NCBI RefSeq assembly: GCF_003428155.1
Contig: NZ_QLIR01000001.1
Location: 120,001-152,000 of the forward strand
Origin: Fastidiosibacter lacustris
GTDB taxonomy: Bacteria > Pseudomonadota > Gammaproteobacteria > Francisellales > Francisellaceae
Direction: 5' to 3'
DNA: 32,000 nucleotides
Part shown: piece by piece, positions 864 through 31,760 of the stretch
Layout: every line of letters starts with the position of its first letter
How positions within the stretch are numbered: position 1 is the stretch's first letter
The notes under the pieces: generated by a model
Seen by the model: the letters and a program-made list of their open reading frames with translations, nothing else
What the model was told of the DNA's origin: nothing
The model's database searches: none
Program-made: the position numbers and the translations under genes

Positions 864-906
864 GATACGCCGTAATAAAAACAGATAAATCAAAATAGGT
901 GTATCA

Positions 907-1485: not shown

Positions 1486-1509
1486 ATTTAAAAGAAGCTG
1501 AAAATAAAA

Positions 1510-1538
1510 CTTGAAAAATAAAAACGCGTCGGCATATT
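1510..1538 (+). promoter_or_regulatory. Candidate sigma32 heat-shock promoter for dnaK
   Basis: CTTGAA (1510-1515), 14-nt spacer, CGGCATATT (1530-1538), upstream of the AAAGGAG Shine-Dalgarno and the dnaK ATG. Confidence 0.5.
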
Positions 1539-1570
1539 CCTTGGCGTTAAATTAAAAGGAGATAACAACA

Positions 1571-3514: not shown

Positions 3515-3535
3515 TAAAAGCTAACTTTTAACTTG

Positions 3536-3563
3536 AAAAATGCGGGCATGTTCCGCATTTTTT
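3536..3563 (+). terminator. Rho-independent terminator after dnaK (overlaps a third sigma32-like motif)
   Basis: AAAAATGCGG-GCATGTT-CCGCATTTTTT, a GC-containing stem followed by a T run, about 20 nt after the dnaK stop. Confidence 0.6.
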
Positions 3564-3603
3564 ATAGCGTTTTAAATGCAGACGAGAATAATGGTAAAAA
3601 GAC

Positions 3604-4719: not shown

Positions 4720-4812
4720 AATTTCAGGCGTTATAGAAAAACGTGATTATAAATCCGAGATTTTGATTGCTTTTTTTTGATACTTTCACAATCTGCAAAC
4801 GATTAGAATTAG

Positions 4813-4889
<77 letters not shown>

Positions 4890-5105
4890 TATGAAAGCCT
4901 TACAAAATAATATTTTATCAAATAAATAAAAAAGCAATAAAAGGTAATGATTAAAACTAAAGGTAACATATAGGTAACAAGGAAAATCTGTTATGAGGTG
5001 TGATGTTGGTTGTACAATTCACTCAGGTACAGCCAGGATATCAATTAAAAAAATTGAGTTTGTGTAAAGTTTTAGTTTTTAATGCACAAAGTTTTAATGT
5101 TTTTA

Positions 5106-5125
5106 TTGCATAATATAATATGCAA
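5106..5125 (+). promoter_or_regulatory. Near-palindrome containing a TATAAT box upstream of hicA (candidate hicAB promoter/operator)
   Basis: TTGCATA-ATATAA-TATGCAA has outer 7-nt arms that are perfectly inverted. TATAAT lies at 5114-5119, about 45 nt upstream of the hicA ATG. Confidence 0.35.
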
Positions 5126-5163
5126 AGCCATAATTTGATAAAATTTTGGATGACGGAAGCAAT

Positions 5164-5365
5164 ATGCCGATAAAGCCAGAAGAAATTGCTAAAATCCTAA
5201 AACAAAATGGATGGATAGAGCTTAAGAAAAGGCAAGGGTTCGCATAGGCAATATATAAAAGATGGTAAATTGACAACAATTCCATTTCATAAAGGTAGAG
5301 ACGTTCCTTATCCAACTGTTAAAATGATTGAAAAACAAACAAGTGTAAAATTGTTGAAAAAATGA
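5164..5365 (+). pseudogene. hicA: hicA-like mRNA interferase toxin, disrupted by a 1-nt frameshift
   Basis: The ATG at 5164 gives MPIKPEEIAKILKQNGWIELKKRQGFA and then a stop. The next frame continues GSHRQYIKDGKLTTIPFHKGRDVPYPTVKMIEKQTSVKLLKK and a stop. Joined, they form a typical roughly 66-aa HicA. The span is 202 nt, which is not a multiple of 3. Confidence 0.7.
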
Positions 5366-5373
5366 GGTAGATT

Positions 5374-5799
5374 ATGGAAACACTACGTTATCCCGCAAAA
5401 ATCACCCAAGAGGATGAGGCTTATATTGTGCTTTTCCGTGATTTAGAGGGATGTCATACTTTTGGTGATACTTTGGAGGAAGCACGTGCTATGGCGCAAG
5501 AAGCATTAGATTGCTATCTTGAAGCTTGCTTGCAGGAAGGAATTAAAGTGAATCGCCCATCAGTAAAACTTGATGATGAAACAGAATTTTTCCCATCAGT
5601 TGAGGTATCTGTGCCTCTCTTACTGCGTTTTTGTCGTGAAGACCATAATATGACGATGATACAGATGGCAAATGCAATGGATATTGCCTACCAGAATTAT
5701 CAAGCAATTGAATCTGGTAAACGCAAGAATTTGACTCTCATCACGCTCAAAAAAGCATTTGCTGCAATCGGTTGCCAAGCAAGATTACAGCTTGGTTAA
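5374..5799 (+). CDS. hicB: HicB-family antitoxin (N-terminal HicB fold plus C-terminal XRE-type HTH)
   Basis: METLRYPAKITQEDEAYIVLFRDLEGCHTFGDTLEEARAMAQEALDCYLE is a classic HicB N-terminus. It sits immediately downstream of hicA. Confidence 0.85.
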   Translation: METLRYPAKITQEDEAYIVLFRDLEGCHTFGDTLEEARAMAQEALDCYLEACLQEGIKVNRPSVKLDDETEFFPSVEVSVPLLLRFCREDHNMTMIQMANAMDIAYQNYQAIESGKRKNLTLITLKKAFAAIGCQARLQLG

Positions 5800-6105
5800 A
5801 TCATCCTCAACGCTTTGCGAGCGAGCGATTCCGTCCTTCTTTAATCTTTTTACGTTAAGTTCATTATTTTGTTGAGACATAATGTTTTTCTACATTTTTA
5901 TGAGTTAACAGATAGATAATATATGAGATTGTTAGGTTTAATAAATATATTATTTTTAATATAAAGCTTTATTTCTTTTCACTATATAACATCTTAGGTT
6001 CTATTTGTTACATAAAATATCTTGTTAAAAAAATTATAACTTGGATAATCAATTTTGCTTTAAATGCTTTATGAGCAATTTTCAGTAACTTTATTAGGGA
6101 GACTC

Positions 6106-6861
6106 ATGATGAAAAAATTATTTGGTAGTTTAGTTTTTGCTATAGGATTTGGTTTTTCTGTAGCATATGGAGGACCTTTTTACTTGCTATGTTTTATGTC
6201 ATGTGTCGCTGGATGTGAAGCAATTTGCGCTGCGCTTACAGGACCTGCTGCTGTTGCATGTTTGCCTCCTTGCGTTGAGGGTTGTGGAGCATCATGTGTT
6301 GCGTCATGTTTTTCTCCCTCAACAAAATTAATCACCAAAGAAAATGGAGTAGAAATAGAAAAAGAAATAGCTAATATACATCCTGGCGACCAAGTTAAAA
6401 CCATTAAAAATGGAAAACCATTTTGGACGACAGTAACAAAAAATATTAAAACTGAAGGATTATTTGAATTTATCCGAATTAAGGCTAATTCATCATCAAA
6501 TCAACAAACGATAGAACTTGAAATTACTCCAAGTCATGGTGTGGTAATGCTTGTTGACAACAATAAAACGATTGATATAGCAAAAAACTTAGTTCTTGGT
6601 GATAATTTGTTGGCATCTAATGGTGACATGTTGTCAGTAACCGAGATTAATACGGTAGTAGTGCCAGATAGATACACTCTTGAAACTGCTGAAGGTAGTG
6701 TATTAGCCTCTAATGTGTTTGTCTCTACTATTTGTAGTGAAGAAATAGCTAATGGAGAGCAACTTTGGGATGATAAATTAAAAGATTGGAGCGAAAGGCA
6801 TAGAGATATTTTTTCAGCTCAAATTGTGGGACAGGTTTTTGATAAATCAAAAAATAACTAA
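6106..6861 (+). CDS. Secreted Cys-rich (CxxxC-repeat) peptide fused to a Hedgehog/intein-type Hint autoprocessing domain
   Basis: GGGAG Shine-Dalgarno before the ATGATG at 6106. Sec-type signal peptide MMKKLFGSLVFAIGFGFSVAYG, then about 45 aa with 8 Cys, mostly spaced CxxxC. Next comes CFSPST (Hint block A Cys-Phe), ITPSHGVV (TxxH block B) and VLASNVFVSTIC near the end of the domain. Confidence 0.6.
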   Translation: MMKKLFGSLVFAIGFGFSVAYGGPFYLLCFMSCVAGCEAICAALTGPAAVACLPPCVEGCGASCVASCFSPSTKLITKENGVEIEKEIANIHPGDQVKTIKNGKPFWTTVTKNIKTEGLFEFIRIKANSSSNQQTIELEITPSHGVVMLVDNNKTIDIAKNLVLGDNLLASNGDMLSVTEINTVVVPDRYTLETAEGSVLASNVFVSTICSEEIANGEQLWDDKLKDWSERHRDIFSAQIVGQVFDKSKNN

Positions 6862-6918
6862 AAATAACACTTTATATGATCGTAAGCTAAACCTGATGTT
6901 TGGTTGGTTTACTCTTAT

Positions 6919-7122
6919 TCACTTATAGGCAAACCTACACTTATCAGTTATTACCCTTGCAAATCCAATAATTTCATCATTAAAAAATATGGCTGCACAT
7001 AAAGAGTTTTGTATTGCCTTTTGTACAATATTTAAAGGTATATTCTTACACCAATAGCATTCTTTTAGCCAATGGTGTAATGTTTTTATATCAATTTTTT
7101 CTTTTTGAATGTCAAAAATATG
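6919..7122 (-). pseudogene. Remnant of a GNAT-family N-acetyltransferase gene (N-terminal about 65 codons only, no ATG)
   Basis: Manual minus-strand translation gives HIFDIQKEKIDIKTLHHWLKECYWCKNIPLNIVQKAIQNSLCAAIFFNDEIIGFARVITDKCRFAYK and a stop. This matches the N-terminal half of small GNAT proteins (..SYWA.. NSL.. GFARV.TD..FAY) but ends before the acetyl-CoA binding motif. Confidence 0.4.
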
Positions 7123-7168
7123 CTAAAATGATTCATAATGATGTTTTATTGAATCTAAAGGCGTTGTG

Positions 7169-7399
7169 ATGAGTGGAAAAATTCAAGTTACAGTCGATGA
7201 AAGTTTAAATAAGGCTATTCATGTTCAGGCACAAAAAATGGGGTTGTCTGTTAGTTCTTATGCAAGGTATGCCATTAAGGATTTTATGGAGCGAAATAAG
7301 TCGAAGAAGACACTACTGGAAAAGGCGCTGGAATCTGAGAGCAAGGAAATTAGTTTGGCTGCTTTTAAAGAACAAATTAAGGCGCTGAGAGGTGCTTAA
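7169..7399 (+). CDS. Ribbon-helix-helix antitoxin (RelB/DinJ/ParD-like)
   Basis: Small ORF MSGKIQVTVDESLNKAIHVQAQKMGLSVSSYARYAIKDFM with an RHH pattern. Its end overlaps the toxin gene start by 8 nt. Confidence 0.7.
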   Translation: MSGKIQVTVDESLNKAIHVQAQKMGLSVSSYARYAIKDFMERNKSKKTLLEKALESESKEISLAAFKEQIKALRGA

Positions 7400-7664
7400 A
7401 TTATATCAAAAGAAAGAGTTCAAGAAATCGCTTAAAAAATATCGTCATAAGCAAAAGGTACTTAATGAATTAGAGAAAGTCGTCGAATTGTTAATACATG
7501 AGAAGGTTTTGCCCGTGAAATATAGAGATCATGAATTATCGGGAAATTTTAAAGGAATTAGAGAATTGCACTTATTTTCAGATGACCTTTTGATGTATGT
7601 TAAGATTGAAAAGGAAAGCATTACATTGGTTGCTATAGGCAGTCATGCTGAGTTGTTTGGTTAA
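7392..7664 (+). CDS. YafQ/RelE-family type II toxin (mRNA interferase)
   Basis: GTG start after GAGAGG. The protein ...KYRDHELSGNFKGIRELHLFSDDLLMYVKIEKESITLVAIGSHAELFG matches the YafQ signature (DH.L.G...G.RECH...D.LLIY......L.L.R.GSH..LF). Confidence 0.8.
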   Translation: MLKLYQKKEFKKSLKKYRHKQKVLNELEKVVELLIHEKVLPVKYRDHELSGNFKGIRELHLFSDDLLMYVKIEKESITLVAIGSHAELFG

Positions 7665-8316
7665 ACAAATCATCCTCAACAGTTGCCCAGCTGGTGCTGA
7701 ACATTTGCAAAGCGTCAGATGTTTGTAATGGTTCTTCAGCGAGCTTTCTTAAAATGTCACTCGGTGCAGTCACCGCTTGCGCGCCAATGTCCATGCTGTA
7801 GTAAATATCCTCAATGTTTTTAATGCTTGCCATCATTAATTTGCTCTTGCAGTTGACGCTTTTGACGATGTCAGCCATCCTCCTGATTTCGTTTTCCCAG
7901 TTTATATTAGATTGTTTTATATGATCAAAATAAGGGGCAATATAGTCAACATTTAGTTGACAAGATGTAAGCACCTGTCCAGCAGTGAATATGGCTGTCG
8001 ATAACACGGGAATATTCTCACTAACAAGCTCTTTCATTGCCTTGAATCCTTGCTTATTGGCTTGGATTTTTACTATAAATCGGGTAGAAATTGTTCTCAG
8101 ATGACGTGCTTGAGCAATGATCCCGAGAGTATCCTGTGCAGTAACTTGAACGCAGATAGGCTGATCGTTTATTTCAAGCAATCGTTGAAGAGTCTGCAAG
8201 GGACTATTTTGGCTACTAGCTAAGATTTTAGGATTAGTAGTAATGCCACTTGTAAGTCCGACATGATCAAAGTATCTAGCATCACTTAAGTTTGAGCTGT
8301 CTAGCCATATTTCCAT
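7633..8316 (-). CDS. Transaldolase-family protein (fructose-6-phosphate aldolase/TalC-like)
   Basis: MEIWLDSSNLSDARYFDHVGLTSGITTNPKILA..., then FIVKIQ (position of the Schiff-base Lys motif VKIP) and ...YIAPYFDHI. Length is about 220 aa, like the FSA/TalC subfamily. Confidence 0.75.
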   Translation of the reverse strand: MEIWLDSSNLSDARYFDHVGLTSGITTNPKILASSQNSPLQTLQRLLEINDQPICVQVTAQDTLGIIAQARHLRTISTRFIVKIQANKQGFKAMKELVSENIPVLSTAIFTAGQVLTSCQLNVDYIAPYFDHIKQSNINWENEIRRMADIVKSVNCKSKLMMASIKNIEDIYYSMDIGAQAVTAPSDILRKLAEEPLQTSDALQMFSTSWATVEDDLFNQTTQHDCL

Positions 8317-8325
8317 GTTGTTTCC

Positions 8326-9114
8326 TTATAAATTAATTTTTGTCGCTTTTGCAGCGAGCTCATACAATGTATTGCATTCAAATTTTGCTTTTAATGTTGA
8401 TAGTTGATTGTCAACCGTTTTTACTGATCGACAGCGTTTGCTTGCTGTTTCTTTTAAATTTAATCCTCCTTTAAGAAAATTTAAAATTCTGCGTTCTTGT
8501 CTTGTGATATATTGACCTGATTGTGAATCAATATATATTTTGCTAGTGCTCTTATCAAGCACTGTCACAAGCTCATTAATAATTTGATCAGATATTGAGA
8601 CACTTGAAGGCTTAATAACAAAGTCTGGAATAATGATTTTTTGATTTTCTGCTTCTGTAATAATATGTGATGCTTTGTCATTAAAATAATTGATAAATGC
8701 ATGCAGTGCGGACAGTATTTTACCTAAATCATTGTGCTCTAAAGATACATGGCGGTGAAAACCAAAGTGATAAAATTTGGTTTTAGTTGTATGCTTTTTA
8801 ATGATTGTAATACCATTTTCTATGCCGAAATCACTAGCCTCACGATACACTGGGGATTGAACCCATTCCCAAAGAATGTGACCATCTTGCATGTGTTGAA
8901 ATCCTTTTTCAAAGATAGCAACATTATACAGCTTATGATCATAATAATGCTGAATCCAGTCTGAGTGGGTAGTTAATCTGACATGTGAGCCATCTAAATA
9001 ATTCGCGTCAAATGTAAAGTAGTTTAAGCCGATTCGTTCCAATGGTTTTACAAGTAGTTTGATATCATGCACGTTGCGTTCCATTACTCTGTTTTGAATT
9101 AAATTTTGCTCCAT
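8326..9114 (-). CDS. LuxR-family transcriptional regulator (C-terminal GerE/LuxR HTH, N-terminal ligand-type domain)
   Basis: The C-terminus ITRQERRILNFLKGGLNLKETASKRCRSVKTVDNQLSTLKAKFECNTLYELAAKA is a LuxR-type HTH. Confidence 0.8.
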   Translation of the reverse strand: MEQNLIQNRVMERNVHDIKLLVKPLERIGLNYFTFDANYLDGSHVRLTTHSDWIQHYYDHKLYNVAIFEKGFQHMQDGHILWEWVQSPVYREASDFGIENGITIIKKHTTKTKFYHFGFHRHVSLEHNDLGKILSALHAFINYFNDKASHIITEAENQKIIIPDFVIKPSSVSISDQIINELVTVLDKSTSKIYIDSQSGQYITRQERRILNFLKGGLNLKETASKRCRSVKTVDNQLSTLKAKFECNTLYELAAKATKINL

Positions 9115-9193
9115 TTATTAAGTACCTCAATATTATTTCTGTTGTGAAAACAATTCTTATCTTGATACCCCATTCCCCAGTCCCAGCGGTTCG

Positions 9194-10525
9194 TTATACA
9201 TGCACTAGAATTTCACCTCCTTGAGTTATTTCCTCAAGGGACTTTTGCTTGGTTTCAGTAATGCAATAAGTAAAAAATATAAACCCAATTATTGATATTA
9301 TGGCAAATGTAAGAAATGTTGCTGATGTGCCCAGCAAACTTATCATTGTCGGGAAAAACATTGCAACAATTATGTTTGTAAACCAATTAGCTGCAATTGA
9401 TAAGCTCATGCCCAATCCGCGAATATCAATTGGGAAAATTTCAGCTGGTAGCAAAAAGCATGCTGGTCCAACGCTTAACCCTTGGCACAATACAAATATA
9501 ACAGATAGTATCAGAATGACGCTTGCAAGGATTATAGGGTTATTTATCAATGCATATGAGGCACTCATCAAAACAAGGCACGTGATAATGCCAACCAATC
9601 CAGTTAGCAGCATTCTTCTTCTGCCAAGTTTATCTAACTTTCTGCTAGCTATAATTGCAGCAAACATAACTGCAAAACCTATAAATATGGATGCAAATAT
9701 AGCTATATTCCCATTTCTAAACCCTGCATCCATCAAAATGGTTGGAGCATAGTAAATCACAGCATTAATTCCAACCGCTTGCGTAAATATGCCAATGGCA
9801 ATGCCAATTAGCAAAAGTCGTTTATGTGTCCACGTAAGTTTGCTTAATTTTGTCACTTGGACATGCTTGTTTTTGCGAACAAACTCAAGTTCAGTATTTT
9901 GGTCAACGATGGAATATAACTCTTTAATAACCCTATTAGCTTGTGCTTCGCGTCCTTTTGTATAAAGCCATCGTGGAGACTCTGGTAATACTTTTAAACA
10001 TAAAGTGAATATAATTGCAGGAATCGCGGTGATTAAAAACATTAACTGCCAAGATTCAAAGCCTGCAAGTAGCGCATTGCTTACATAGCATAAGAATATT
10101 CCTGCATTAACTGATATGAGATAGTATGTCACAATTTTACCTCTATGCTGAGCAGGTGACAACTCGCTAAGATATAGAGGTGTAATAGTTGAGCTTAATC
10201 CAACACCTAATCCCATAAATAGTCGACCAATGATTATCCAGTCAATATTCATGCCTATGGTGCAAAAAATACTCCCAGTTAAGAATAGTAAACCAGTTAT
10301 CACTAAGGCTTTTTTTCTGCCAAAATAGTCTATAACTCTGCCTGACAATACAGCTGAAACTAGGGCGCCTATAGGTACTCCGCTTACAATAATACCCTCA
10401 GCCAACGGTGTTAAATGAAAGTCGTTTTTTAAATAAATCATTGCCCCTGAAATGATACCAGCATCAAAACCGAACAGCAGTCCTGATATTGAGCACACAA
10501 ATAGAATAAACTTCAAATTCCTCAT
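9194..10525 (-). CDS. MFS sugar porter family transporter
   Basis: 12-TM-type sequence with the sugar-porter motifs GRKK, PESPRWL and PAEIFP. Confidence 0.9.
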   Translation of the reverse strand: MRNLKFILFVCSISGLLFGFDAGIISGAMIYLKNDFHLTPLAEGIIVSGVPIGALVSAVLSGRVIDYFGRKKALVITGLLFLTGSIFCTIGMNIDWIIIGRLFMGLGVGLSSTITPLYLSELSPAQHRGKIVTYYLISVNAGIFLCYVSNALLAGFESWQLMFLITAIPAIIFTLCLKVLPESPRWLYTKGREAQANRVIKELYSIVDQNTELEFVRKNKHVQVTKLSKLTWTHKRLLLIGIAIGIFTQAVGINAVIYYAPTILMDAGFRNGNIAIFASIFIGFAVMFAAIIASRKLDKLGRRRMLLTGLVGIITCLVLMSASYALINNPIILASVILILSVIFVLCQGLSVGPACFLLPAEIFPIDIRGLGMSLSIAANWFTNIIVAMFFPTMISLLGTSATFLTFAIISIIGFIFFTYCITETKQKSLEEITQGGEILVHV

Positions 10526-10614
10526 TTTAAAACTCCCTTATTTTTGTAGTAGAGACTTATGACAAAATGTAACTAAATTTGCATAAAGCACAACAATTTT
10601 TTATATACATCAGC

Positions 10615-10662
10615 AATATTTAGGGGGTTTCCCCTAAAAATCCGAAATATTTAGGGGATTTC
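10615..10662. promoter_or_regulatory. Direct repeat AATATTTAGGGG(G/A)TTTC x2 with a 20-bp dyad TTTAGGGG-GTTT-CCCCTAAA, upstream of the MFS/LuxR/aldolase genes
   Basis: Repeats lie at 10615-10631 and 10646-10662, 31 bp apart. The dyad is at 10619-10638. The element is 90-135 bp upstream of the transporter start on the minus strand. Confidence 0.4.
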
Positions 10663-11029
10663 GATGAATGATTTTTACGTGTTGATACATGAAAATACTA
10701 AACACATGGCAGCCAAGATGGATTGCTATTAAGTACAAACTAAGCGCTTAGTTTTTGAGATTATTCATGAGAAAATACTAAAAAGGATTAGATATGACCT
10801 TGATTAATATATTCGACTTGCTACAATCGCTAGTGTCGGGCTTCGAAACCCAGATCATAAGCGGATGGATTACGTTATTAATCTTTCTAAACAAACTCCG
10901 AAGTTTTTTCAAATTTCGGGTGGGCGTATGCCATACAACACCAGCAATGGGAAAGCATATGCGCGTAGCTTGTGATACGTTTCGAACCACCCGATGCAAC
11001 TTTCGAAAAAAATCATAAGGAGTCTAGCT

Positions 11030-19711: not shown

Positions 19712-20027
19712 TATGATTGATATGAATGAAGAAAATGACTTGATCCCAAACACTGCCCAAATAAAAGAACGAGCGTATGTTGATGCGTTGCATCTTTCTG
19801 GCTTAAGGTATGCGTCCCTTAGTGAGCAACTATATACGACAACAACTAAATTTGCAGAGCTATTTAGATCAATATTATCTGAAAAAGACGCTGATAGAGA
19901 GATTCTAGTGGACTATGTTGAAACGCTGCCGCGAGATGTTGCCGTGATGATTATTGGTGATTTGCTTGTGAAAGAAGATATTACACACGATGAATACCAA
20001 AATCTTGAAAGTATTATTTTTGACTAA
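19704..20027 (+). CDS. Hypothetical protein between the terminase subunits
   Basis: 107-aa acidic ORF overlapping both neighbours. Confidence 0.45.
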   Translation: MINMIDMNEENDLIPNTAQIKERAYVDALHLSGLRYASLSEQLYTTTTKFAELFRSILSEKDADREILVDYVETLPRDVAVMIIGDLLVKEDITHDEYQNLESIIFD

Positions 20028-21831
20028 CGTGCTATCTAAACTAATCAAACAAACCTTTGAGCAGCACTTCAAGCCCGTTAAAGACCTGGGGATAAGCGAT
20101 TGGTCAGAATCGCATGTGTACTTACCTGCGGGGACCTCAGCAGTGCCAGGCAGGTGGCGCACGATTGCCTATCAAAAAGGCGTGTTTGAAGCGATTGAAT
20201 CTCCAAAAACCAACAAGATTACGCTGATGTTCGGGGCACAATTGGGCAAAACATCAATTTTAAACAACAGCCTTGGCTACTATATTCAGCATCAACCCGA
20301 GTCGCAGATTGTGATGCAGCCGTCTGAATCAGATGTTAAAACGTGGTTAGAAACTAAGTTTAACCCGATGGTGGATAATTGCCCAAGCATCCGTGATTGC
20401 TTGGCAAAGCCACGCGGGCGTGAGGGAGTCAATAACCAAAAGATGAAGTCTTATCACGGTGGTTTTTTAATGCTTTCTTGGTCTGGGTCCCCCAACACCA
20501 TGCGAGGTCGTTCAGCACCTAAGATTTATGCCGATGAGGTGGACGGTTATGAACGCACCAGCGAGGGGCATCCAGTTAATTTGTTATGGCAACGTGCGGC
20601 AACCTTTGGCAGTAAGCGTAAGCTATTAATCACGAGCACACCCACGCACAAAGGTGCATCTTTTGTTGAGATGAGTTATCTGTCAGGCGATCAGCGTCAA
20701 TACTATGTACCTTGCCCGCATTGTGAGGAATATCAGGTGTTGCAGTGGAAAAACGTCACTTGGCATAGTGACAAAGGCAAGCATGACACACAAAGCGCGT
20801 ATTATACGTGTGAGCACTGTGGCAGCTTAATCAACGATGGACAGAAACTTGCAATGATACGTAAAGGTGAATGGCAGGCAAGAATGCCATTTAATGGACA
20901 TGCAAGCTTTCATTTAAATGAGTTATACAGTCCATTTAGAACCTTTGCTGATATTGTGCAATCGTTTTTGGAGAAGAAACAAACAGGTGATTTAAAAACC
21001 TTTGTCAATGTATCCCTTGCTGAAACGTGGGAGGAAGAAGGTGAGCAGGTCGAAGCAGGCAGTTTACTTGCCCGTGTTGAGCATTGGGAGGTATTACCAG
21101 AGGGAATCGTGTTAATCACTGCAGGTATTGATGTGCAGCAGGATAGAATTGAGCTCCAAGCAGTTGGCTGGGGAGTGGATGAAGAAAGCTGGGTGATTGA
21201 TTATAAAATCTTTCACGGCGAGACAAGTGAGGATGAGGTTTGGCGCGAGTTGACGCAATACCTCCTGCATAAGCGTTATCAGCATGAGTCTGGGAAACAG
21301 CTGCCAATTGCCTTTGCCTGTTTAGATACTGGCGGCACCAATAACATGACCTCTAAGGCGTACGATTATGTCAGACGCAGTCGCATTGGCTTACCCTTTG
21401 CGATTAAAGGGCGTGGTGGTGAGTATCCGTTTGTTGCCGCCCCCAATCGCAAGAGGGTGCCCAATAAAAAGGCATTTGACCTGTACATGATTGGCACCGA
21501 TGAAGGTAAAAGTATTTTATACAATCGCTTGAAGCTTGAAGAAGAGAAGGGTGCCAGCGTCATCCACTTTGACGCTAATGTATGTGATGCCCGTTACTTT
21601 GGACAATTAACCGCTGAGAAGCGTCTCTTACGCTATCAAAAAGGTTTCCCAAAATATGAATGGCATAACGTTGCCGCTGATAAGCGTAATGAGGCATTGG
21701 ATACTTATATCTATGCTCTAGCGGCATTAAGGATTACTAATATTGATTTGAGCTTAAAGCGGCAGCAGCTAAAGCAGGAAGCAAAAACAAAACCGCAAAA
21801 AATAGCAAACAACAAAAGTTTTAAACTTTGA
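19990..21831 (+). CDS. Terminase large subunit, lambda GpA family
   Basis: ISDWSESHVYLPAGTSAVPGRWRTIAYQKGVFEAI... then Walker A LMFGAQLGKTS, a CPHC...CEHCG zinc motif and the C-terminal nuclease region. The start could also be the GTG at 20029. Confidence 0.9.
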   Translation: MNTKILKVLFLTNVLSKLIKQTFEQHFKPVKDLGISDWSESHVYLPAGTSAVPGRWRTIAYQKGVFEAIESPKTNKITLMFGAQLGKTSILNNSLGYYIQHQPESQIVMQPSESDVKTWLETKFNPMVDNCPSIRDCLAKPRGREGVNNQKMKSYHGGFLMLSWSGSPNTMRGRSAPKIYADEVDGYERTSEGHPVNLLWQRAATFGSKRKLLITSTPTHKGASFVEMSYLSGDQRQYYVPCPHCEEYQVLQWKNVTWHSDKGKHDTQSAYYTCEHCGSLINDGQKLAMIRKGEWQARMPFNGHASFHLNELYSPFRTFADIVQSFLEKKQTGDLKTFVNVSLAETWEEEGEQVEAGSLLARVEHWEVLPEGIVLITAGIDVQQDRIELQAVGWGVDEESWVIDYKIFHGETSEDEVWRELTQYLLHKRYQHESGKQLPIAFACLDTGGTNNMTSKAYDYVRRSRIGLPFAIKGRGGEYPFVAAPNRKRVPNKKAFDLYMIGTDEGKSILYNRLKLEEEKGASVIHFDANVCDARYFGQLTAEKRLLRYQKGFPKYEWHNVAADKRNEALDTYIYALAALRITNIDLSLKRQQLKQEAKTKPQKIANNKSFKL

Positions 21832-21864: not shown

Positions 21865-22209
21865 TTATGCTATTTCTTTTAGAGCGCTAACTGAGATTAA
21901 TTTTTGTACATCTCTACCAATCCAAACGCAGTCATCTCCTTTTAAATATTCCGCTCCTGCATGAGCTTTTGCATCATGCCAACTGATATTATGGATAATA
22001 AATAGCTGGGCTATTTGTTTTGCTGTCATGGACTCTAATACATCATGATCAACATGTGTAAAAATAGCTTTTTCAATGTGATCTTGTTGAGAGGGAGTTG
22101 GGTTAATCTTTGAGATATGCCAAGCTCTATCTATTTTTCTCCGGCGCATAGTTTTTGTCCTTAAACCAGTTATGTGATTTATATTGCCAACGACAACGGT
22201 AGCAAACAT
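21865..22209 (-). CDS. Hypothetical protein (first gene of the antisense island; likely start is the ATG at 22149)
   Basis: Minus-strand ORF convergent with terL. AAGGA lies 8 nt before the internal ATG, giving MRRRKIDRAWHISKINP... No family recognised. Confidence 0.45.
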   Translation of the reverse strand: MFATVVVGNINHITGLRTKTMRRRKIDRAWHISKINPTPSQQDHIEKAIFTHVDHDVLESMTAKQIAQLFIIHNISWHDAKAHAGAEYLKGDDCVWIGRDVQKLISVSALKEIA

Positions 22210-22264: not shown

Positions 22265-22442
22265 ATTAAAAACCACGCTGTTTATTAAAACAGCGACTTA
22301 TATTAAATTTTGATAACAAACAAAAGTTTCAATCCAACGCTATTTAAATATTTTAAATAGCGACTAATATTTTCTTTATATTAAATTTTAATAACAAATA
22401 AAAGTTTCAATCCAACACTATATTAACTGTTAATATAGCGAC
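22265..22442 (-). CRISPR. Orphan phage-borne mini-array of type I-C-like CRISPR repeat units (2 full units plus 1 degenerate terminal unit)
   Basis: Read on the minus strand. Unit B is GTCGCTATATTAACAGTTAATATAGTGTTGGATTGAAAC (22442-22404), followed by a 39-nt spacer-like segment. Unit A is GTCGCTATTTAAAATATTTAAATAGCGTTGGATTGAAAC (22364-22326), followed by a 28-nt spacer-like segment. The degenerate unit is GTCGCTGTTTTAATAAACAGCGTGGTTTTTAAT (22297-22265). The flanks match the I-C repeat pattern GTCGC...GCGTGGATTGAAAC. Confidence 0.5.
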
Positions 22443-22511
22443 CAAATCATTAAACATTATTTATTTTTTTTTGCAAGTTTTTTTTAGCCTTTCGGTGCTA
22501 TTGTAACTATT

Positions 22512-22781
22512 TTAGAACCGACGTAGATCATTCCATGCTGCCTCGATGATTCGCTTAACAGTTTCGTACATTAAATTACTATCTTTACCCTGATAGCCAA
22601 ACGAATTAACAAAGGTTGAAAAGGTAAGCTCATCTCCTGTCTTAGTTGACCATTTGCTAAAGGCATGCGCAATAGCAATTGCTTTGCTCTGAAATGCTTT
22701 CGCTGCATCATATTGTGCTAGTTTTTCACGCCGCGATTGAATTATTTCTATTTCATCTTGTGTCAATTCATTGATTTTCAT
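22512..22781 (-). CDS. Hypothetical 89-aa protein (copy 1; identical to 30924..31193)
   Basis: The translation is identical in both cassettes. It lies downstream of the 107-aa ORF under the repeated promoter. No family recognised. Confidence 0.6.
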   Translation of the reverse strand: MKINELTQDEIEIIQSRREKLAQYDAAKAFQSKAIAIAHAFSKWSTKTGDELTFSTFVNSFGYQGKDSNLMYETVKRIIEAAWNDLRRF

Positions 22782-22793
22782 ATTTTTCTACTC

Positions 22794-23118
22794 TTATCCC
22801 CAAATCATCTTGTGCTCCAATTTGTCAACATACTTAATAGACACGGCAAGTTTTAAAATTTCCCTAAGCGCATCTCTTTCTGTGAGGCACCATTCATGTC
22901 TGTCTCGCACTGTAGGCATGACATTAATACCTGCATAATCCCCGCCAACAAACTCGGCTACCCATTGCTCTGGGTAATCGTATAGTTTGGCTGGGAATAA
23001 TCCAAAAGCAGGGACATCATCTTGATTGTCTTTAAGTTTGACTAATCTAATCACTCCAAAAAAAAGTTTCGATTTCTTTCGTTTCGATTATTAGCTGCTC
23101 TTCAAATATTGTTCTCAT
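22794..23118 (-). pseudogene. Frameshifted copy of the 107-aa cassette protein (T8 instead of T7 on the coding strand)
   Basis: It shares the ATG (23118), Shine-Dalgarno and sequence of 31206..31529. The extra A at 23058-23065 (plus strand) shifts the frame after codon 20, giving ...ETFFWSD and a stop. The remaining 86 codons stay open behind a GTG. Confidence 0.7.
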
Positions 23119-23190
23119 TTTTTAACTCCTATTTTTATTGCCTGCTCACGTGAGGCTTTCCGCTACCAGGTCCGTCCTGGTATGTTTGTT

Positions 23191-23219
23191 ATTATATGGC
23201 GTTACGCCATGTAAAGCAA
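23191..23219 (-). promoter_or_regulatory. Strong sigma70-type promoter, copy 1 (TTGCTT-17 nt-TATAAT) with palindrome TGGCGTAACGCCA in the spacer
   Basis: On the minus strand, the -35 TTGCTT is at 23219-23214 and the -10 TATAAT at 23196-23191. The perfect 6-1-6 palindrome is at 23197-23209. An A/T-rich UP-like tract lies upstream. A roughly 65-nt leader with the hairpin TACCAGG-ACGGA-CCTGGTA runs before the GGAG Shine-Dalgarno. Confidence 0.7.
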
Positions 23220-23237
23220 GTGGTTTTTAAAAAAATA

Positions 23238-23486
23238 TTAAATATTTTTGAATAAAATTTTTATGAAATCATCATCCAAAGCCCTATCATTATTATGCAA
23301 GTACAACAATATCTGCTCGGCTAAATAAGATAGATTCATTTTCCCATTTTCCCATCGGTTTACATGTCTGCCTTTGCTGCGGTCGTGACCAAGCAATATA
23401 ACCTCAAGTTGCGTTTGATTTAATCCAAATTTTTTGCGCACGGATTTAACGAGCGCTGGAGTAGCTAATTGATTATTACTTTGCAT
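23238..23486 (-). CDS. Small XRE-family HTH protein (Aca-like regulator or antitoxin candidate)
   Basis: MQSNNQLATPALVKSVRKKFGLNQTQLEVILLGHDRSKGRHVNRWENGKMNLS is an XRE-type HTH. Its ATG follows the stop of the upstream ORF within TAATATG. The track start at 23501 lies inside the upstream gene. Confidence 0.7.
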   Translation of the reverse strand: MQSNNQLATPALVKSVRKKFGLNQTQLEVILLGHDRSKGRHVNRWENGKMNLSYLAEQILLYLHNNDRALDDDFIKILFKNI

Positions 23487-23487
23487 A

Positions 23488-24033
23488 TTAAACAACCTCA
23501 AGTTGTGGTTTGTCAGTTATCCATGTCCAGGCAATGCAACGCTCAAAATCGGCAAGCCACAAAAATGCATCAAGATACAACGCTCCACAGTCATGTATAA
23601 CCGTTGTGATCGACGGAGCATTAGGTATTTGCTGCGCGTTTACTTTTGCTGTCAAAAATCTAAAATGCTCTTTAATCAACATCCACGCTCGCACTGCTTG
23701 CCTTGATCTTTGGACTATATAGCTTGTTGTCAGTGGGATGCCAGCACTACTTGCCTGAGCTTGCTCATGAGGAGCGGCAGGACCATAAACAGTAACAATT
23801 AATACACTGTGATCTGTTAGTATTTTTGCAGAGTAGTGTGCTAAATCGGGGACAGGCAGAGGCTGTGCGATACGAGAGTCAATACACTTTTTGAGCCACG
23901 GTTTTAATAATTTTATTGTTTTATCGTTTATGGTGTCGCGATAGCATCTATCTTTATCACCAGTTGGCAAGGTTAAATGTGTTAGATAGTTATTGCTCAA
24001 TATTATCTCCTTTAATCTTGTTAATTTTATCAA
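23488..24033 (-). CDS. Hypothetical protein, translationally coupled to the HTH gene (likely start is the TTG at 24000 after AAGGAG)
   Basis: ORF with no in-frame ATG near its 5' end. A perfect AAGGAG lies 6 nt before the TTG at 24000-23998. No family recognised. Confidence 0.55.
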   Translation of the reverse strand: MIKLTRLKEIILSNNYLTHLTLPTGDKDRCYRDTINDKTIKLLKPWLKKCIDSRIAQPLPVPDLAHYSAKILTDHSVLIVTVYGPAAPHEQAQASSAGIPLTTSYIVQRSRQAVRAWMLIKEHFRFLTAKVNAQQIPNAPSITTVIHDCGALYLDAFLWLADFERCIAWTWITDKPQLEVV

Positions 24034-24107
24034 TCATTCCAATTTCTCTTGTGGTTGATACATACTAAAAAACTTGCAAAAAAAAATAAATAATGTTTAA
24101 TGATTTG

Positions 24108-24177
24108 GTCGCTATATTAACTGTTATTAATATAGTGTTGGATTGAAACTTTCGTTTGTTATTAAAATTTTAACATA
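24108..24177 (+). CRISPR. Solitary type I-C-like CRISPR repeat unit plus conserved spacer-like segment, in inverted orientation relative to the other two loci
   Basis: Plus strand GTCGCTATATTAACTGTTATTAATATAGTGTTGGATTGAAAC (24108-24149) followed by TTTCGTTTGTTATTAAAATTTTAACATA. Flanking sequence from 24066 is the reverse complement of about 22376-22487. Confidence 0.5.
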
Positions 24178-24225
24178 TTCGCCTATGTATGTTGTGTGCT
24201 GGCATACCCAGCACTATGATACGTA

Positions 24226-24694: not shown

Positions 24695-24907
24695 CTATTT
24701 TTATTGCCTGCTCACGTGAGGCTTTCCGCTACCAGGTCCGTCCTGGTATGTTTGTTATTATATGGCGTTACGCCATGTAAAGCAAGTGGTTTTTAAAAAA
24801 ATATTAAGTTTTTTTTGGATAATGATGGTTAGTAGTCAATCAAATAATCCCGCACAATCTTAACTCATATTTAGCCCCATTCTTGATCTATACCATCGGG
24901 GGAGGGG
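24695..24907 (-). repeat. Promoter/leader plus about 120-bp outer arm, near-identical to 31535-31750
   Basis: By-eye alignment is identical apart from a T8 (24809-24816) versus T7 (31554-31560) run. Identity ends at CCATCGGGGGAGGG, just before the start of the downstream plus-strand phage gene in both places. Confidence 0.85.
24757..24785 (-). promoter_or_regulatory. Strong sigma70-type promoter, copy 2 (drives the 152-aa ORF)
   Basis: Same TTGCTT-17-TATAAT arrangement, with -35 at 24785-24780, -10 at 24762-24757 and the palindrome at 24763-24775. Same leader, but the Shine-Dalgarno is GGAA instead of GGAG. Confidence 0.7.
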
Positions 24908-24909
24908 AT

Positions 24910-25158
24910 ATGGATATAGACGAAGAATTACAACAGAAGAAAGCTGAATTGCAGTCGATACGCGCATCGATTAACAAAGCGTTGGCTAATGCGCATATTG
25001 CGTCATATGGTGCAGCTGGTAATACGGCAAACTATCGTGATTTAAAAAACTTGCGTGTGGAAGAATCGCAACTTGCGTTTGCAGTTAAACAGTTGGAATT
25101 AATCAAAATAGGTAAAAATCCGTATGGCATTGTAACCACAAGTTTTAGGTGGCGCTGA
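24910..25158 (+). CDS. Head-tail joining / head completion protein, lambda gpW-like
   Basis: GGGGGAGGGG Shine-Dalgarno then the ATG at 24910. Small coiled protein located between TerL and portal as in lambda (A-W-B order). TGATG overlap with the portal start. Confidence 0.55.
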   Translation: MDIDEELQQKKAELQSIRASINKALANAHIASYGAAGNTANYRDLKNLRVEESQLAFAVKQLELIKIGKNPYGIVTTSFRWR

Positions 25159-26633
25159 TGGGATTATTGTCACTTTTTAGACGCTCAAAACCCTCTGGGC
25201 ACATAGGGCAAAAGTGGGCAGTTGTCTCACATCAAAGAATGTATGAGTCGGCTCGATCACAATTGATACGTGATATTTTTAGTGGTGGGGATATTGATGA
25301 GATTATCGAGTCTCAAGCCAGTGCAATTGTAAGGCGCGCCCGTGAAGCTTATGCCAATAATGATTATGTGAAAGGCTATATATCAATGGCATGCACTAAT
25401 ATCATCGGGCACAAAGGCATCCGTATCCAATGCAAAACTAAAAGCGAGATATTAAACGACAAAGTTGAGCTTGGTTTTAATCGCTGGACGCGTCGAGGCA
25501 AGTGTGATGTTACGGGGCAACTATCGCTTATTGATGTGCAATTGGCGTGTGTGCGGTCATTATTAAGGGATGGCGAGTTTTTTGTGCTAAAACATGTCAT
25601 TGACGGGCAGTTACAATTGCAATTAATTGACAACTCGCGCATCGATGTCACTAAACGCGCAAGCTTAAGCAATCGCAATAGAATTATTAACGGTATTGAG
25701 CTGAACCAATTTGGTAAGCCTCAAGCATATTATTTAGTGGCTGATGATGGTGCGGATACACAACGCATTGCGGCTAATAACATGATTCACGGCTTTATTC
25801 ACGAATTTGTTGGGCAAAAGCGCGGCATTTCGACGATTGCTACGGCGTTAATTCGATTGGGTCTACTAAAAGAGTTTGAAACGGCTGCGGTGGATAATGC
25901 CAGATGTAACGCTAAATCGATGGGCTTTTTTAATCAAGCAGAAACAGAGGTTGATTATAGCGCATTAATCGATAGAGATGGGGGCGCAGATAATAGCTTT
26001 GACATCCAAACATTGGATGATCGCGCGCAATTTCACGTCATCAAATCAGGTTACAAGCTTGAAAAGTTTGACGGGCAGTTTCCAAGCTCCAACTACGCCC
26101 CTTTTAAAGAATCAATTTTAAAAGCGATTAGCTCAAGTTTAGGCTATGGAGTGAATTACATCAATCTAGGCAATGACTTAAGTGGAGTGAGTTACTCAAG
26201 CGCAAGACAAGGGCTATTAAGCGAGCGTGATGCGTGGCGCATGCTGCAAACACTTGTTATTGACGCGCTGATGCGCCCAATTTTTGAAAGTTGGCTTGAG
26301 GTTGAGTACGCAAGTAGCAGATTGGGGAATATCAGCGTATTAAGCTTTGATAATTTAATTGACACAGTACGCTTCCAAACTCGCTCATGGGCGTGGATTG
26401 ACCCGCTAAAAGATGCCAAAGGCACCTCGGAAAGCATTAACAATCACACGATGAGCTTGTCACAAGCGATTTTAGATGCAGGTGGCGACCCTGAGGATAC
26501 CTTAAACCAGATTGCCGCTGATTTAGCGCGCTTAAAAGAGTTAGGTATCGTTAATCAAATAAGCACTGAGGGGGACATTAAAAAACAAGTAGAGGAGGGG
26601 GTAAATAATGCAGGGCTATATCAAGACGATTAA
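25158..26633 (+). CDS. Portal protein, lambda family
   Basis: Size and position fit (after gpW, before the protease). Sequence resembles the lambda gpB family (..YANNDYVKGYI......GIRIQ...). The ATG at 25158 overlaps the gpW stop. Confidence 0.8.
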   Translation: MGLLSLFRRSKPSGHIGQKWAVVSHQRMYESARSQLIRDIFSGGDIDEIIESQASAIVRRAREAYANNDYVKGYISMACTNIIGHKGIRIQCKTKSEILNDKVELGFNRWTRRGKCDVTGQLSLIDVQLACVRSLLRDGEFFVLKHVIDGQLQLQLIDNSRIDVTKRASLSNRNRIINGIELNQFGKPQAYYLVADDGADTQRIAANNMIHGFIHEFVGQKRGISTIATALIRLGLLKEFETAAVDNARCNAKSMGFFNQAETEVDYSALIDRDGGADNSFDIQTLDDRAQFHVIKSGYKLEKFDGQFPSSNYAPFKESILKAISSSLGYGVNYINLGNDLSGVSYSSARQGLLSERDAWRMLQTLVIDALMRPIFESWLEVEYASSRLGNISVLSFDNLIDTVRFQTRSWAWIDPLKDAKGTSESINNHTMSLSQAILDAGGDPEDTLNQIAADLARLKELGIVNQISTEGDIKKQVEEGVNNAGLYQDD

Positions 26634-30033: not shown

Positions 30034-30741
30034 ATGGACGTGATGCAATACTTAACAGACATGCAACGGCGTTTAAATAATTTGGTTCGCGTGGGTACAG
30101 TTATTGAGACAAATGACACACGCTTAAAGGTAAAGTTGGGCGATAATAGCACGGGGTGGCTGCCGTGGGTGACACAAAGAACAGGGGATTGCGTCACATG
30201 GTGGAAGCCGTCCGTTGGTGAACAGGTGCTTGTTTTAAGTCCCTCTGGTGAGTTAAATAATGGTATTGTGCTACCTGCCATTTACACTAAAAATCAACCA
30301 ACACTAAACCAAAATGAGCACACAACGGTTTACAAAGATGGCACTCGTATTAGCTATGATTATGCGCAAAAGAAGCTATCTGTAAATTGCGTTGGTGATA
30401 TTGAAATCACAGCCGCTAAGATGCTCACTGCCGATATTACAGACTCGGTAACCATTAAAGGTGCTAAGACACTCAGCATTGATTTTGCGGGCAATATTGA
30501 CATCAAAACACCCACGCAAGTCAAAATTGATGCGCCTAATATGATTTGCACGGGCAACTTGTTAGTACAAGGTGGTTTAACGTATATGCAAGGCATGACA
30601 GGCTACAACCAAGGCGGTGGTAAAACGGCAACCATTCAAGGGGCGATTAATGTAACTGATGATGTGGTCGCTGGTGGCATCTCACTTAAAGGGCATATGC
30701 ATACTGGGGATAGTGGCGGTAGTACGTCAGCACCAAAATAA
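30034..30741 (+). CDS. Baseplate assembly protein V (P2 gpV-like central spike)
   Basis: LVRVGTVIETNDTRLKVKLGDNSTGWLPWVTQRTGDCVTWWKPSVGEQVLVLSPSGELNNGIVLPAIY is the typical gpV N-terminal OB fold, with a C-terminal beta-helix-type repeat region. Confidence 0.8.
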   Translation: MDVMQYLTDMQRRLNNLVRVGTVIETNDTRLKVKLGDNSTGWLPWVTQRTGDCVTWWKPSVGEQVLVLSPSGELNNGIVLPAIYTKNQPTLNQNEHTTVYKDGTRISYDYAQKKLSVNCVGDIEITAAKMLTADITDSVTIKGAKTLSIDFAGNIDIKTPTQVKIDAPNMICTGNLLVQGGLTYMQGMTGYNQGGGKTATIQGAINVTDDVVAGGISLKGHMHTGDSGGSTSAPK

Positions 30742-30754: not shown

Positions 30755-30854
30755 ATTAAAAACCACGCTGTTTATTAAAACAGCGACTTATATTAAATTT
30801 TAATAACAAACGAAAGTTTCAATCCAACACTATATTAACTGTTAATATAGCGAC
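30755..30854 (-). CRISPR. Type I-C-like CRISPR repeat unit, 28-nt spacer-like segment and degenerate terminal unit
   Basis: Minus strand GTCGCTATATTAACAGTTAATATAGTGTTGGATTGAAAC (30854-30816), then TTTCGTTTGTTATTAAAATTTAATATAA (30815-30788), then GTCGCTGTTTTAATAAACAGCGTGGTTTTTAAT (30787-30755). Confidence 0.5.
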
Positions 30855-30923
30855 CAAATCATTAAACATTATTTATTTTTTTTTGCAAGTTTTTTTTAGC
30901 CTTTCGGTGCTATTGTAACTATT

Positions 30924-31193
30924 TTAGAACCGACGTAGATCATTCCATGCTGCCTCGATGATTCGCTTAACAGTTTCGTACATTAAATTACTATCTTTAC
31001 CCTGATAGCCAAACGAATTAACAAAGGTTGAAAAGGTAAGCTCATCTCCTGTCTTAGTTGACCATTTGCTAAAGGCATGCGCAATAGCAATTGCTTTGCT
31101 CTGAAATGCTTTCGCTGCATCATATTGTGCTAGTTTTTCACGCCGCGATTGAATTATTTCTATTTCATCTTGTGTCAATTCATTGATTTTCAT
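30924..31193 (-). CDS. Hypothetical 89-aa protein (copy 2)
   Basis: Identical translation to 22512..22781. Confidence 0.6.
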   Translation of the reverse strand: MKINELTQDEIEIIQSRREKLAQYDAAKAFQSKAIAIAHAFSKWSTKTGDELTFSTFVNSFGYQGKDSNLMYETVKRIIEAAWNDLRRF

Positions 31194-31205: not shown

Positions 31206-31529
31206 TTATCCCCAAATCATCTTGTGCTCCAATTTGTCAACATACTTAATAGACACGGCAAGTTTTAAAATTTCCCTAAGCGCATCTCTTTCTGTGAGGC
31301 ACCATTCATGTCTGTCTCGCACTGTAGGCATGACATTAATACCTGCATAATCCCCGCCAACAAACTCGGCTACCCATTGCTCTGGGTAATCGTATAGTTT
31401 GGCTGGGAATAATCCAAAAGCAGGGACATCATCTTGATTGTCTTTAAGTTTGACTAATCTAATCACTCCAAAAAAAGTTTCGATTTCTTTCGTTTCGATT
31501 ATTAGCTGCTCTTCAAATATTGTTCTCAT
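31206..31529 (-). CDS. Hypothetical 107-aa protein (intact copy)
   Basis: ATG preceded by GGAG and the repeated promoter/leader. MRTIFEEQLIIETKEIETFFGVIRLVKL... No family recognised. Confidence 0.6.
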   Translation of the reverse strand: MRTIFEEQLIIETKEIETFFGVIRLVKLKDNQDDVPAFGLFPAKLYDYPEQWVAEFVGGDYAGINVMPTVRDRHEWCLTERDALREILKLAVSIKYVDKLEHKMIWG

Positions 31530-31601
31530 TTTTTAACTCCTATTTTTATTGCCTGCTCACGTGAGGCTTTCCGCTACCAGGTCCGTCCTGGTATGTTTGT
31601 T

Positions 31602-31630
31602 ATTATATGGCGTTACGCCATGTAAAGCAA
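31602..31630 (-). promoter_or_regulatory. Strong sigma70-type promoter, copy 3
   Basis: -35 TTGCTT at 31630-31625, a 17-nt spacer containing TGGCGTAACGCCA, and -10 TATAAT at 31607-31602. Confidence 0.7.
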
Positions 31631-31760
31631 GTGGTTTTTAAAAAAATATTAAGTTTTTTTGGATAATGATGGTTAGTAGTCAATCAAATAATCCCGCACA
31701 ATCTTAACTCATATTTAGCCCCATTCTTGATCTATACCATCGGGGGAGGGTCTAAAAATA

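Follow-up and report, generated by a model that had tools for sequence, protein, structure and literature searches.

Candidate type I-C crRNA-like RNA cassettes in the accessory islands of a Fastidiosibacter lacustris prophage

Three cassettes with type I-C-like repeat units

A prophage of Fastidiosibacter lacustris carries three short cassettes (A, B and C) whose repeat-like units resemble the repeats of type I-C CRISPR arrays. All three lie in the analysed stretch of 32,000 nt on contig NZ_QLIR01000001.1 (positions 120,001 to 152,000), which we refer to as the window. Cassette A is located on the minus strand, and its letters can be read as a promoter-like stretch followed by unit, segment, unit, segment and a truncated unit. 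The promoter-like sequence (22443-22483, minus strand) consists of TTGCAA (22476-22471) and TTTAAT (22454-22449) at a distance of 16 nt. Repeat-like unit 1 (22404-22442, minus strand; GTCGCTATATTAACAGTTAATATAGTGTTGGATTGAAAC) is composed of GUCGC, an 11-bp AU-rich stem, GUG, a single U and GGAUUGAAAC. It is followed by guide-like segment 1 (22365-22403, minus strand), which comprises 28 conserved nt, TTTTATTTGTTATTAAAATTTAATATAA (22403-22376), and 11 extra nt. Unit 2 (22326-22364, minus strand; GTCGCTATTTAAAATATTTAAATAGCGTTGGATTGAAAC), whose stem departs from that of unit 1 by compensatory changes, precedes guide-like segment 2 (22298-22325, minus strand; TTTTGTTTGTTATCAAAATTTAATATAA, 28 nt). 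The cassette closes with the truncated terminal unit 3 (22268-22297, minus strand), in which GTCGCTGTTTTAATAAACAGCGTGG (22297-22273) runs into TTTTT; this unit consists of GUCGC, an 8-bp stem, GCG and UGG ahead of the U run and was called as a terminator-like site in the terminator scan.

Three successive minus-strand units with the outer parts of a type I-C repeat, the last of them degenerate and possibly an intrinsic terminator, had already been described in a reading of the sequence alone (the sequence-only reading), and all of this is present as reported. Its account of the spacers needs correction in one respect: the conserved 28 nt do follow each full unit, but the actual segment lengths are 39 and 28 nt. 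The locus is also larger than had been proposed. The reported units are genuine, but two more cassettes lie outside them, at 24067-24177 on the plus strand and at 30758-30895 on the minus strand.

Cassette B (24108-24177, plus strand) has the same promoter-like sequence as cassette A (24067-24107, plus strand) and contains one unit of 42 nt with a 6-nt loop (24108-24149) and a guide-like segment beginning TTTCGTTTGTTATTAAAATTTT; a GC hairpin lies beyond it at 24196-24214. In cassette C (30758-30854, minus strand), again with this promoter-like sequence (30855-30895, minus strand), a unit (30854-30816) and a 28-nt segment, TTTCGTTTGTTATTAAAATTTAATATAA (30815-30788), are followed by a truncated unit with a U run (30787-30758). 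Across all three cassettes, a stretch of 63 nt covering the promoter-like sequence together with the beginning of the unit shows 97% identity, and a promoter of the form TTGCAA-16-TTTAAT would place the transcription start near the G of GTCGC. Terminators were called for cassettes A and C. The 28-nt segment has three seed variants (TTTTA, TTTTG and TTTCG). Its 21-nt core occurs four times in the window, against 0.13 expected, and nowhere else in the window outside the cassettes; the exact 12-mer TTGGATTGAAAC likewise has four occurrences. We also considered the conserved segment as an internal promoter of the next unit and rejected it, as there was no acceptable -35/-10 spacing and no call in the scan.

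Each unit of cassette A folds into a perfect hairpin of 8-11 bp between GU and the handle (z = -2.6 to -3.9), and the hairpins persist in the fold of the whole 183-nt transcript (z = -3.3). The same architecture of GU, perfect stem and single-stranded handle was found in every unit and in a canonical I-C repeat folded alongside. A comparison of units 1 and 2 revealed differences at 8 of 22 positions in the stem-loop and at 2 of 28 in the following segment, and none at the 17 positions of GTCGC and handle. According to the per-unit folds, pairs 5, 7 and 9 are altered on both sides (A-U/G-C, A-U/U-A and U-A/A-U), pair 2 is either G-U or G-C, and no pair is broken. With perfect stems, three compensatory pair changes and one G-U exchange, the hairpin RNA structure appears to be under selection. 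The sequence-only reading had drawn attention to stems that vary and yet keep their pairing, and to near-identical intervening segments (26 of 28 positions the same); both statements hold.

With canonical type I-C repeats the units share the GUCGC 5' end, a stem that opens with CGC and closes with GYG, and the 3' end UGGAUUGAAAC. Their 3' part reads G[C/T]G and UGGAUUGAAAC with one extra U, which the canonical repeat lacks. The comparison was based on the Legionella pneumophila I-C repeat (gtcgcgccccgtgcgggcgcgtggattgaaac) as well as on the repeats of Xanthomonas citri and Desulfovibrio vulgaris, and sixteen or more terminal bases match I-C repeats in the proper arrangement. We also built a covariance model from the L. 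pneumophila and D. vulgaris repeats together with one viral unit with canonical junction, leaving out the four full units of the window, and scored the whole window on both strands without filters. The four full units took ranks 1-4. Unit 2 reached 19.2 bits (E = 0.0012) in a full-length match, in which the outer stem pairs and the handle align with one inserted U, and the other three scored 15.3 bits (E about 0.02; 0.019 for unit 1). The truncated units alone gave 7.7 bits, which is at noise level. The termini and the top ranks under a canonical-repeat model thus bear out the proposed resemblance to type I-C repeats. The arrangement is nevertheless the reverse of a canonical array: whereas such an array has identical repeats, variable spacers and adjacent cas genes, here the stems vary and the spacers are identical at 26 of 28 positions. 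No cas domain was found in any ORF (open reading frame) of the window that was scanned, as had been stated before.

Accessory islands and related modules in other phages

Cassettes A and B are situated inside a 3-kb antisense accessory island in the interval between the large terminase gene gpA (terL, 19990-21831) and the lambda-type portal gene (25149-26633). Cassette C is part of a second island after the baseplate protein gene (30034-30741). The islands contain small ORFs without assigned function, a helix-turn-helix (HTH) ORF and palindrome-bearing promoters. The sequence-only reading had placed the units directly downstream of small unknown ORFs in an antisense insertion; the insertion stands, but cassette A has its own promoter-like sequence, so the units are not a matter of mere read-through. 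Two pairs of stretches, 22376-22675 and 30788-31087 as well as 23059-23255 and 31470-31666, are 98-99% identical. Judged by this identity, the second island is a partial duplicate of the first, including an 89-aa ORF (phrog_18280) and cassette C, and the prophage therefore carries recent internal duplications of its accessory module.

The 87-aa HTH ORF (23238-23501, minus strand) shows a weak match to an MqsA-type HTH (E = 8e-4, below the Pfam cut-off) and is a candidate for an Aca-like regulator of the island. Upstream of the small-gene operon that precedes cassette A, a putative promoter (23191-23219, minus strand) consists of TTGCTT, 17 nt and TATAAT, with the palindrome ATGGCGTAACGCCAT between the hexamers, and this palindrome looks like an operator for the HTH protein. 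Copies of this operator-promoter are located at about 24757-24785 and 31602-31630. They belong to an element of ~125 nt that is 100% identical in three copies and that forms the promoter and 5' untranslated region before the minus-strand small-gene operons (23138-23225, 24704-24791 and 31549-31636, read on the minus strand). The islands look like an anti-defence locus with its regulator, although none of the known anti-CRISPR proteins was recognised in them.

The prophage is recognisable by genes for a Phg_2220_C protein, RecT, Gp157, a ParB-methylase and a protease-capsid fusion. Window positions 1604-4894 are 99.8% identical to 'Candidatus Nebulobacter yamunensis' JAMBMW01, a bacterium of the Thiotrichales that belongs to the same species as F. 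lacustris (PMC9837558). The similarity ends three bases beyond tRNA-Arg(CCG) (4813-4889), so that everything that follows in the window represents an island together with a prophage, neither of which the Nebulobacter genome has at this site. The region between the tRNA gene and the prophage (4895-10700), likewise absent there, encodes a HicB-like antitoxin with HTH (5374-5799), a sugar porter of the major facilitator superfamily, a LuxR-type regulator and a fructose-6-phosphate aldolase. The host species is a model of early endosymbiosis, and it now offers one strain with the prophage and a near-identical symbiont without it at this site.

Relatives of the units were collected by a pattern scan for GTCGC, a gap and GYGTTGGATTGAAAC. 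A viral contig of Shinella sp. JR1-6 (L001, about 62% G+C) contains three tandem units and then a terminator, each unit being followed by a related but distinct segment (CCTCTAAGTGG, TCTTTAAGTGA and TCTCTTATTGG). The metagenome scan returned 43 loci, mostly chance matches in coding DNA; L025/L027, L038 and L031/L037 are clearly genuine, and none of the 43 holds a regular array of many repeats with this junction. In L025/L027 a unit, 20 nt, a second unit, 21 nt and a terminator follow each other. In L038, units follow a strong promoter, and the terminal one, which is hairpin-only, has GTGTGG at its end, the same truncation as in unit 3. In L031/L037, a single unit is directly followed by a terminator. 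Arrays with short or related guides were also found in L070, L071-L073, L077 and L084-86, and within one array L001 and L072 have related but distinct guides, as in the window. The L072 contig bears two further solitary units at 504 (plus strand) and 1780 (minus strand), with the canonical junction TCG/GCG and TGGATTGAAAC.

This recurrence bears on the suspicion that the units have nothing to do with CRISPR and are ordinary terminators, hairpins similar to repetitive extragenic palindromes (REPs) or protein-binding sites that resemble I-C repeats by chance. Unit 3 would indeed be plausible as an intrinsic terminator, the region is AT-rich, and most of the metagenome matches were due to chance. 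On the other hand, the ends of the units agree with I-C repeats in at least 16 correctly arranged bases, the canonical-repeat model gives the units its top four ranks, and the handle is shared by phage modules from 38% to 62% G+C, where it stands beside homologous proteins. Copies were absent from the host and island part of the window (1-10700, 10.7 kb) and from L002/L003. The related proposal of a generic host REP or terminator element finds no support either, with no copies in 1-10700 and no related repeat-guide junction in species-representative genomes. We therefore regard a chance resemblance as extremely improbable.

Possible function of the encoded RNAs

Two kinds of phage RNA have to be considered for comparison. 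RNA anti-CRISPRs (Racrs) mimic a solitary repeat and act by sequestering Cas proteins; RacrIC1, which is encoded next to acrIC5, is one of them (Camara-Wilpert et al. 2023, PMC10651486). Cracr RNAs are viral copies of host regulatory mini-arrays, in which a short guide directs Cas effectors to repress cas or toxin promoters (Liu et al., bioRxiv 10.1101/2024.10.29.618823). We interpret the three cassettes as phage genes for type I-C CRISPR RNA (crRNA)-like RNAs, that is viral repeat-spacer mimics of Racr-like origin and Cracr-like architecture, and assign a probability of roughly 0.5 to this interpretation. It builds on the mimicry in sequence and structure, the anatomy of the cassettes, their setting in accessory islands and their recurrence in other phages. 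The cassettes are most likely RNA decoys or regulators that disarm the CRISPR immunity of the host.

The anatomy is that of a crRNA-like mini-array, with the 5' handle provided by the first repeat and the fixed segment standing where a spacer would be; the last unit of cassettes A and C is hairpin-only. This terminal unit retains exactly the part of the repeat that is expected on the 3' end of a mature I-C crRNA, followed by the U run. Type I-C Cas5 cuts the repeat hairpin at its 3' base, so that a handle of 11 nt remains. Each cassette would be transcribed from its own promoter with a start at GUCGC, and a host I-C Cas5 would cut at the hairpin bases, yielding RNAs with a UGGAUUGAAAC-type 5' handle, a fixed guide of 28 (or 39) nt and a 3' hairpin. 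Such RNAs could bind Cas proteins by loading into the host I-C Cascade and would thereby draw these proteins away from phage-targeting crRNAs, which would amount to an anti-CRISPR effect. The loaded Cascade would probably bind without cleavage to a regulatory site of the host, such as a cas or toxin promoter, and keep it repressed; binding without cleavage is proposed in view of the conservation of the guide, its short length and its three seed variants. The host I-C repeat that matches the mimics would be expected to end in GCGTGGATTGAAAC.

The units might instead be pure decoys of the Racr kind that only sequester Cas5 and Cas7, the downstream segment being a Cas7-binding tail or conserved for some other reason, with no guide function. 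Racrs are solitary mimics with promoter and terminator, and RacrIC1 provides a type I-C precedent (PMC10651486). Moreover, cassette B is a single unit, the unit of L031/L037 runs directly into its terminator, and no target was found for the guide. Such a decoy does not account well for a 28-nt segment that is far better conserved than the stems and that occurs in three seed variants. The hairpin-only repeat that closes the segment in two cassettes would be needless for a decoy and is expected for a crRNA-like RNA, and related phage arrays also hold related but distinct segments. Pure sequestration is accordingly the less convincing choice, and we consider it unlikely. The Cracr-like architecture is favoured over a bare decoy because the guide is conserved above the stems, is short and has three seed variants, and because hairpin-only repeats close the cassettes. 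The sequence-only reading had grouped three possibilities, namely solitary repeat units, RNA anti-CRISPRs and a fixed-guide mini-array of the phage. The evidence is in line with this group, and the mini-array is its favoured member. Cracrs are often arrays of related guides and often lie next to acr genes; the I-C candidates include nine two-spacer arrays, the spacers of a given array are directed against variants of a single system, and the psi-spacers are short, 21-24 nt in I-E (bioRxiv 10.1101/2024.10.29.618823).

Several observations weigh against crRNA-like RNAs of this type. The promoter-like sequence was not called by a strict consensus promoter scan, and in cassette B no second, 3' repeat follows the guide-like segment. 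The units are 39-42 nt long, compared to 31-32 nt for the canonical I-C repeat, they have 11-bp AU-rich stems instead of a 7-bp GC-rich one, and one extra U occupies the presumed cleavage junction, where the canonical handle directly follows the stem; for these reasons, recognition by Cas5 is a presumption. The I-C system of F. lacustris is itself presumed, with indirect support only from Caedibacter taeniospiralis, a member of the same bacterial family that is reported to carry I-C cas genes. Among the best 120 homologues of D. vulgaris Cas7c, those with an organism name came from Desulfovibrio-like deltaproteobacteria and not from the host. A search of Rfam gave no CRISPR-DR match at the gathering threshold or at E up to 10, which is a weak negative because canonical I-C repeats reach only 24-26 bits, below the cut-off. 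For the repeat-guide junction GATTGAAACTTTNNTTTGTTAT, the species-representative genomes yielded eight chance matches and no related junction or host CreR. Near the cassettes there was no seed match flanked by a protospacer-adjacent motif (PAM), and IMG/VR, INPHARED and PLSDB (2.9 million viral contigs, 50,697 phage records and 72,556 plasmids) contained no protospacer for the guide.

The missing protospacers also speak against a true targeting mini-array, which would use the host I-C Cascade and Cas3 with a fixed guide against a competing phage or plasmid, or would silence a host gene unrelated to CRISPR. The repeat-guide-repeat anatomy fits such an array, and phage mini-arrays directed at competitors are known as a precedent. 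However, a guide of 28 nt is below the usual length of I-C spacers, and near-identical guides that differ in the seed suit variant regulatory sites better than one invader. Overall, this explanation appears quite improbable.

Individual matches to the guide were also inspected. A match on an Acinetobacter plasmid was dismissed as an AT-rich chance match without hairpin. At 6486-6513 on the minus strand, inside the ORF 6064-6861, TTC is followed by TATCGTTTGTTGATTTG, which agrees with the TTTCG variant at 9 of 10 seed positions; the number of such matches was about the chance expectation, and the site was rejected as a target. Guide positions 5-15 share the 11 nt GTTTGTTATTA with the -10/+1 region of the island promoters (23185-23195, plus strand, and two copies). 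Targeting of the island's own promoters was rejected as well, as the flank is CTG and not TTC, seed positions 1, 3 and 4 mismatch, and the similarity is at chance level.

An adjoining protein family and comparison with known systems

Directly downstream of cassette A lies an ORF (21865-22209, minus strand; likely start Met21 at 22149) that is homologous to ORFs adjoining units in L027 and in the Shinella contig. A first database search returned four proteins of this family, all encoded beside I-C-like units, and the full search with a hidden Markov model returned 226 cluster representatives at E up to 0.001, mostly of 80-90 aa. An I-C-like unit lies beside the family gene, within about 40-210 nt, in 9 of 13 independent loci (the window, L001, L025/27, L070, L071, L072, L073, L077 and L084-86); no unit was found near the gene in the other four (L076, L078/79, L080 and L081), and this count leaves out one contig that was too short and one member without DNA. 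The orientation of the unit relative to the gene is mostly divergent and sometimes downstream or convergent. Where the two are divergent (L027 about 810; L071 about 2400, minus strand; L084 about 1955, minus strand), the segment begins with TGTCA. As this reads TTGACA or ATGACA on the strand of the partner gene, the -35 box of that gene may overlap the junction of handle and guide.

The family has no sequence match in Pfam, PHROG, NCBIfam or PDB, and all source names are 'hypothetical protein'. The AlphaFold2 model of the window protein (predicted local distance difference test score, pLDDT, of 85.6) shows four helices and a small sheet, followed by one last helix; no structural counterpart was found in PDB, and the sole match of the model among viral models is an uncharacterised viral protein. 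One member, P0021, is fused to a C-terminal XRE-type HTH domain. Fusions of this kind are known for some anti-CRISPR and regulator proteins. It is conceivable, and we put this forward tentatively, that the ~85-aa protein (22149-21865) is a functional partner of the type I-C crRNA-like RNAs, either as an anti-CRISPR family acting together with them, comparable to AcrIF24 and the I-F Cracrs, or by acting on the RNA or on the loaded Cascade. If so, the pair would represent an anti-I-C module of two components, widespread among proteobacterial phages, on contigs from 38% to 62% G+C. The family of 226 clusters is a candidate for a new I-C anti-CRISPR or RNA cofactor and a possible marker for finding such RNAs. 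We found no published description of the linkage between cassette and protein, which is the most promising lead of the locus.

The same linkage could be explained by a CreTA-like safeguard, in which Cascade loaded with the phage RNA represses the promoter of a toxin, the partner protein, and abortive infection is triggered when a superinfecting phage inhibits Cascade. A small protein tightly beside I-C-like units in nine independent loci, in variable orientation, would suit a toxin-antitoxin pair, and CreTA systems exist as a precedent (bioRxiv 10.1101/2023.03.10.532045; bioRxiv 10.1101/2024.10.29.618823). Against this stand the lack of a seed match flanked by the PAM (NTC) near the partner gene in the nine loci tested, the four family members without a nearby unit, and the fusion of one member to an HTH domain, a feature seen more typically in anti-defence or regulator genes. 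A toxin kept silent in this way is consequently very improbable, more so than either a decoy or a targeting array.

The significance of crRNA-like RNAs at this locus lies in the comparison that they permit. Repeat mimics have recently been recognised as a form of phage counter-defence, for which studied examples of type I-C are few. Here, nature provides three cassettes, each with a promoter-like sequence and with stems rebuilt from A-U pairs, in which the I-C termini and the 28-nt guide are intact. The locus makes it possible to ask which parts of the I-C repeat are needed by Cas5 and Cascade, and whether Cascade becomes a repressor when it is loaded with short fixed guides.

Among the known systems, host CreR/CreA elements resemble the cassettes in that degenerate repeats flank a short guide, which brings about the repression of a promoter but not its cleavage (Liu et al., bioRxiv 10.1101/2023.03.10.532045), and elements associated with I-C loci are reported in the same study. 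CreR/CreA elements are located within host cas loci, whereas the element described here is part of the structural-gene region of a prophage. Upstream of cas3 on the D. vulgaris plasmid pDV1 (L074, 4590-4710), we observed an apparent pair of degenerate repeat remnants, GGGGATTGAGGC and GCGCGTCCCCCCGCGCGGGATGCGTGG; this pair before an I-C cas operon could be a host CreR-type element. In acrIF24-CracrIF, a small phage protein gene recurs beside crRNA-like RNA genes, as it does here, but the protein of the present family has no detectable similarity in sequence or fold to solved or annotated proteins, and the units are of type I-C.

The cassettes share with Racrs the phage-borne repeat mimic, the preserved structure of the presumed cognate repeat and small accessory genes nearby. 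A promoter within 250 bp upstream and a terminator are used to define Racrs (PMC10651486); the cassettes show a promoter-like sequence, which the strict scan did not call, and a called terminator in A and C. They differ from these solitary repeats, which act by sequestration, in the conserved guide-like segment and the closing hairpin-only repeat. The likeness to Cracrs extends to the phage-borne succession of degenerate repeat, short fixed guide and repeat, the location outside a CRISPR-Cas locus, the stacking of related guides in one transcription unit and the frequent linkage to small-protein genes. By definition, a Cracr guide corresponds to a host CreR/CreA, and at least 9 of its PAM-proximal bases pair with a cas or creT promoter; for the guides of the prophage, the junction scan of the species-representative genomes gave only chance matches. 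Further differences from Cracrs are the three cassettes with a promoter-like sequence each, the extended AU-rich stems and the extra U at the junction. As its kind was described between 2023 and 2026, the element does not represent a new category, but it is a new I-C example of unusual clarity from a host lineage that had not been sampled.

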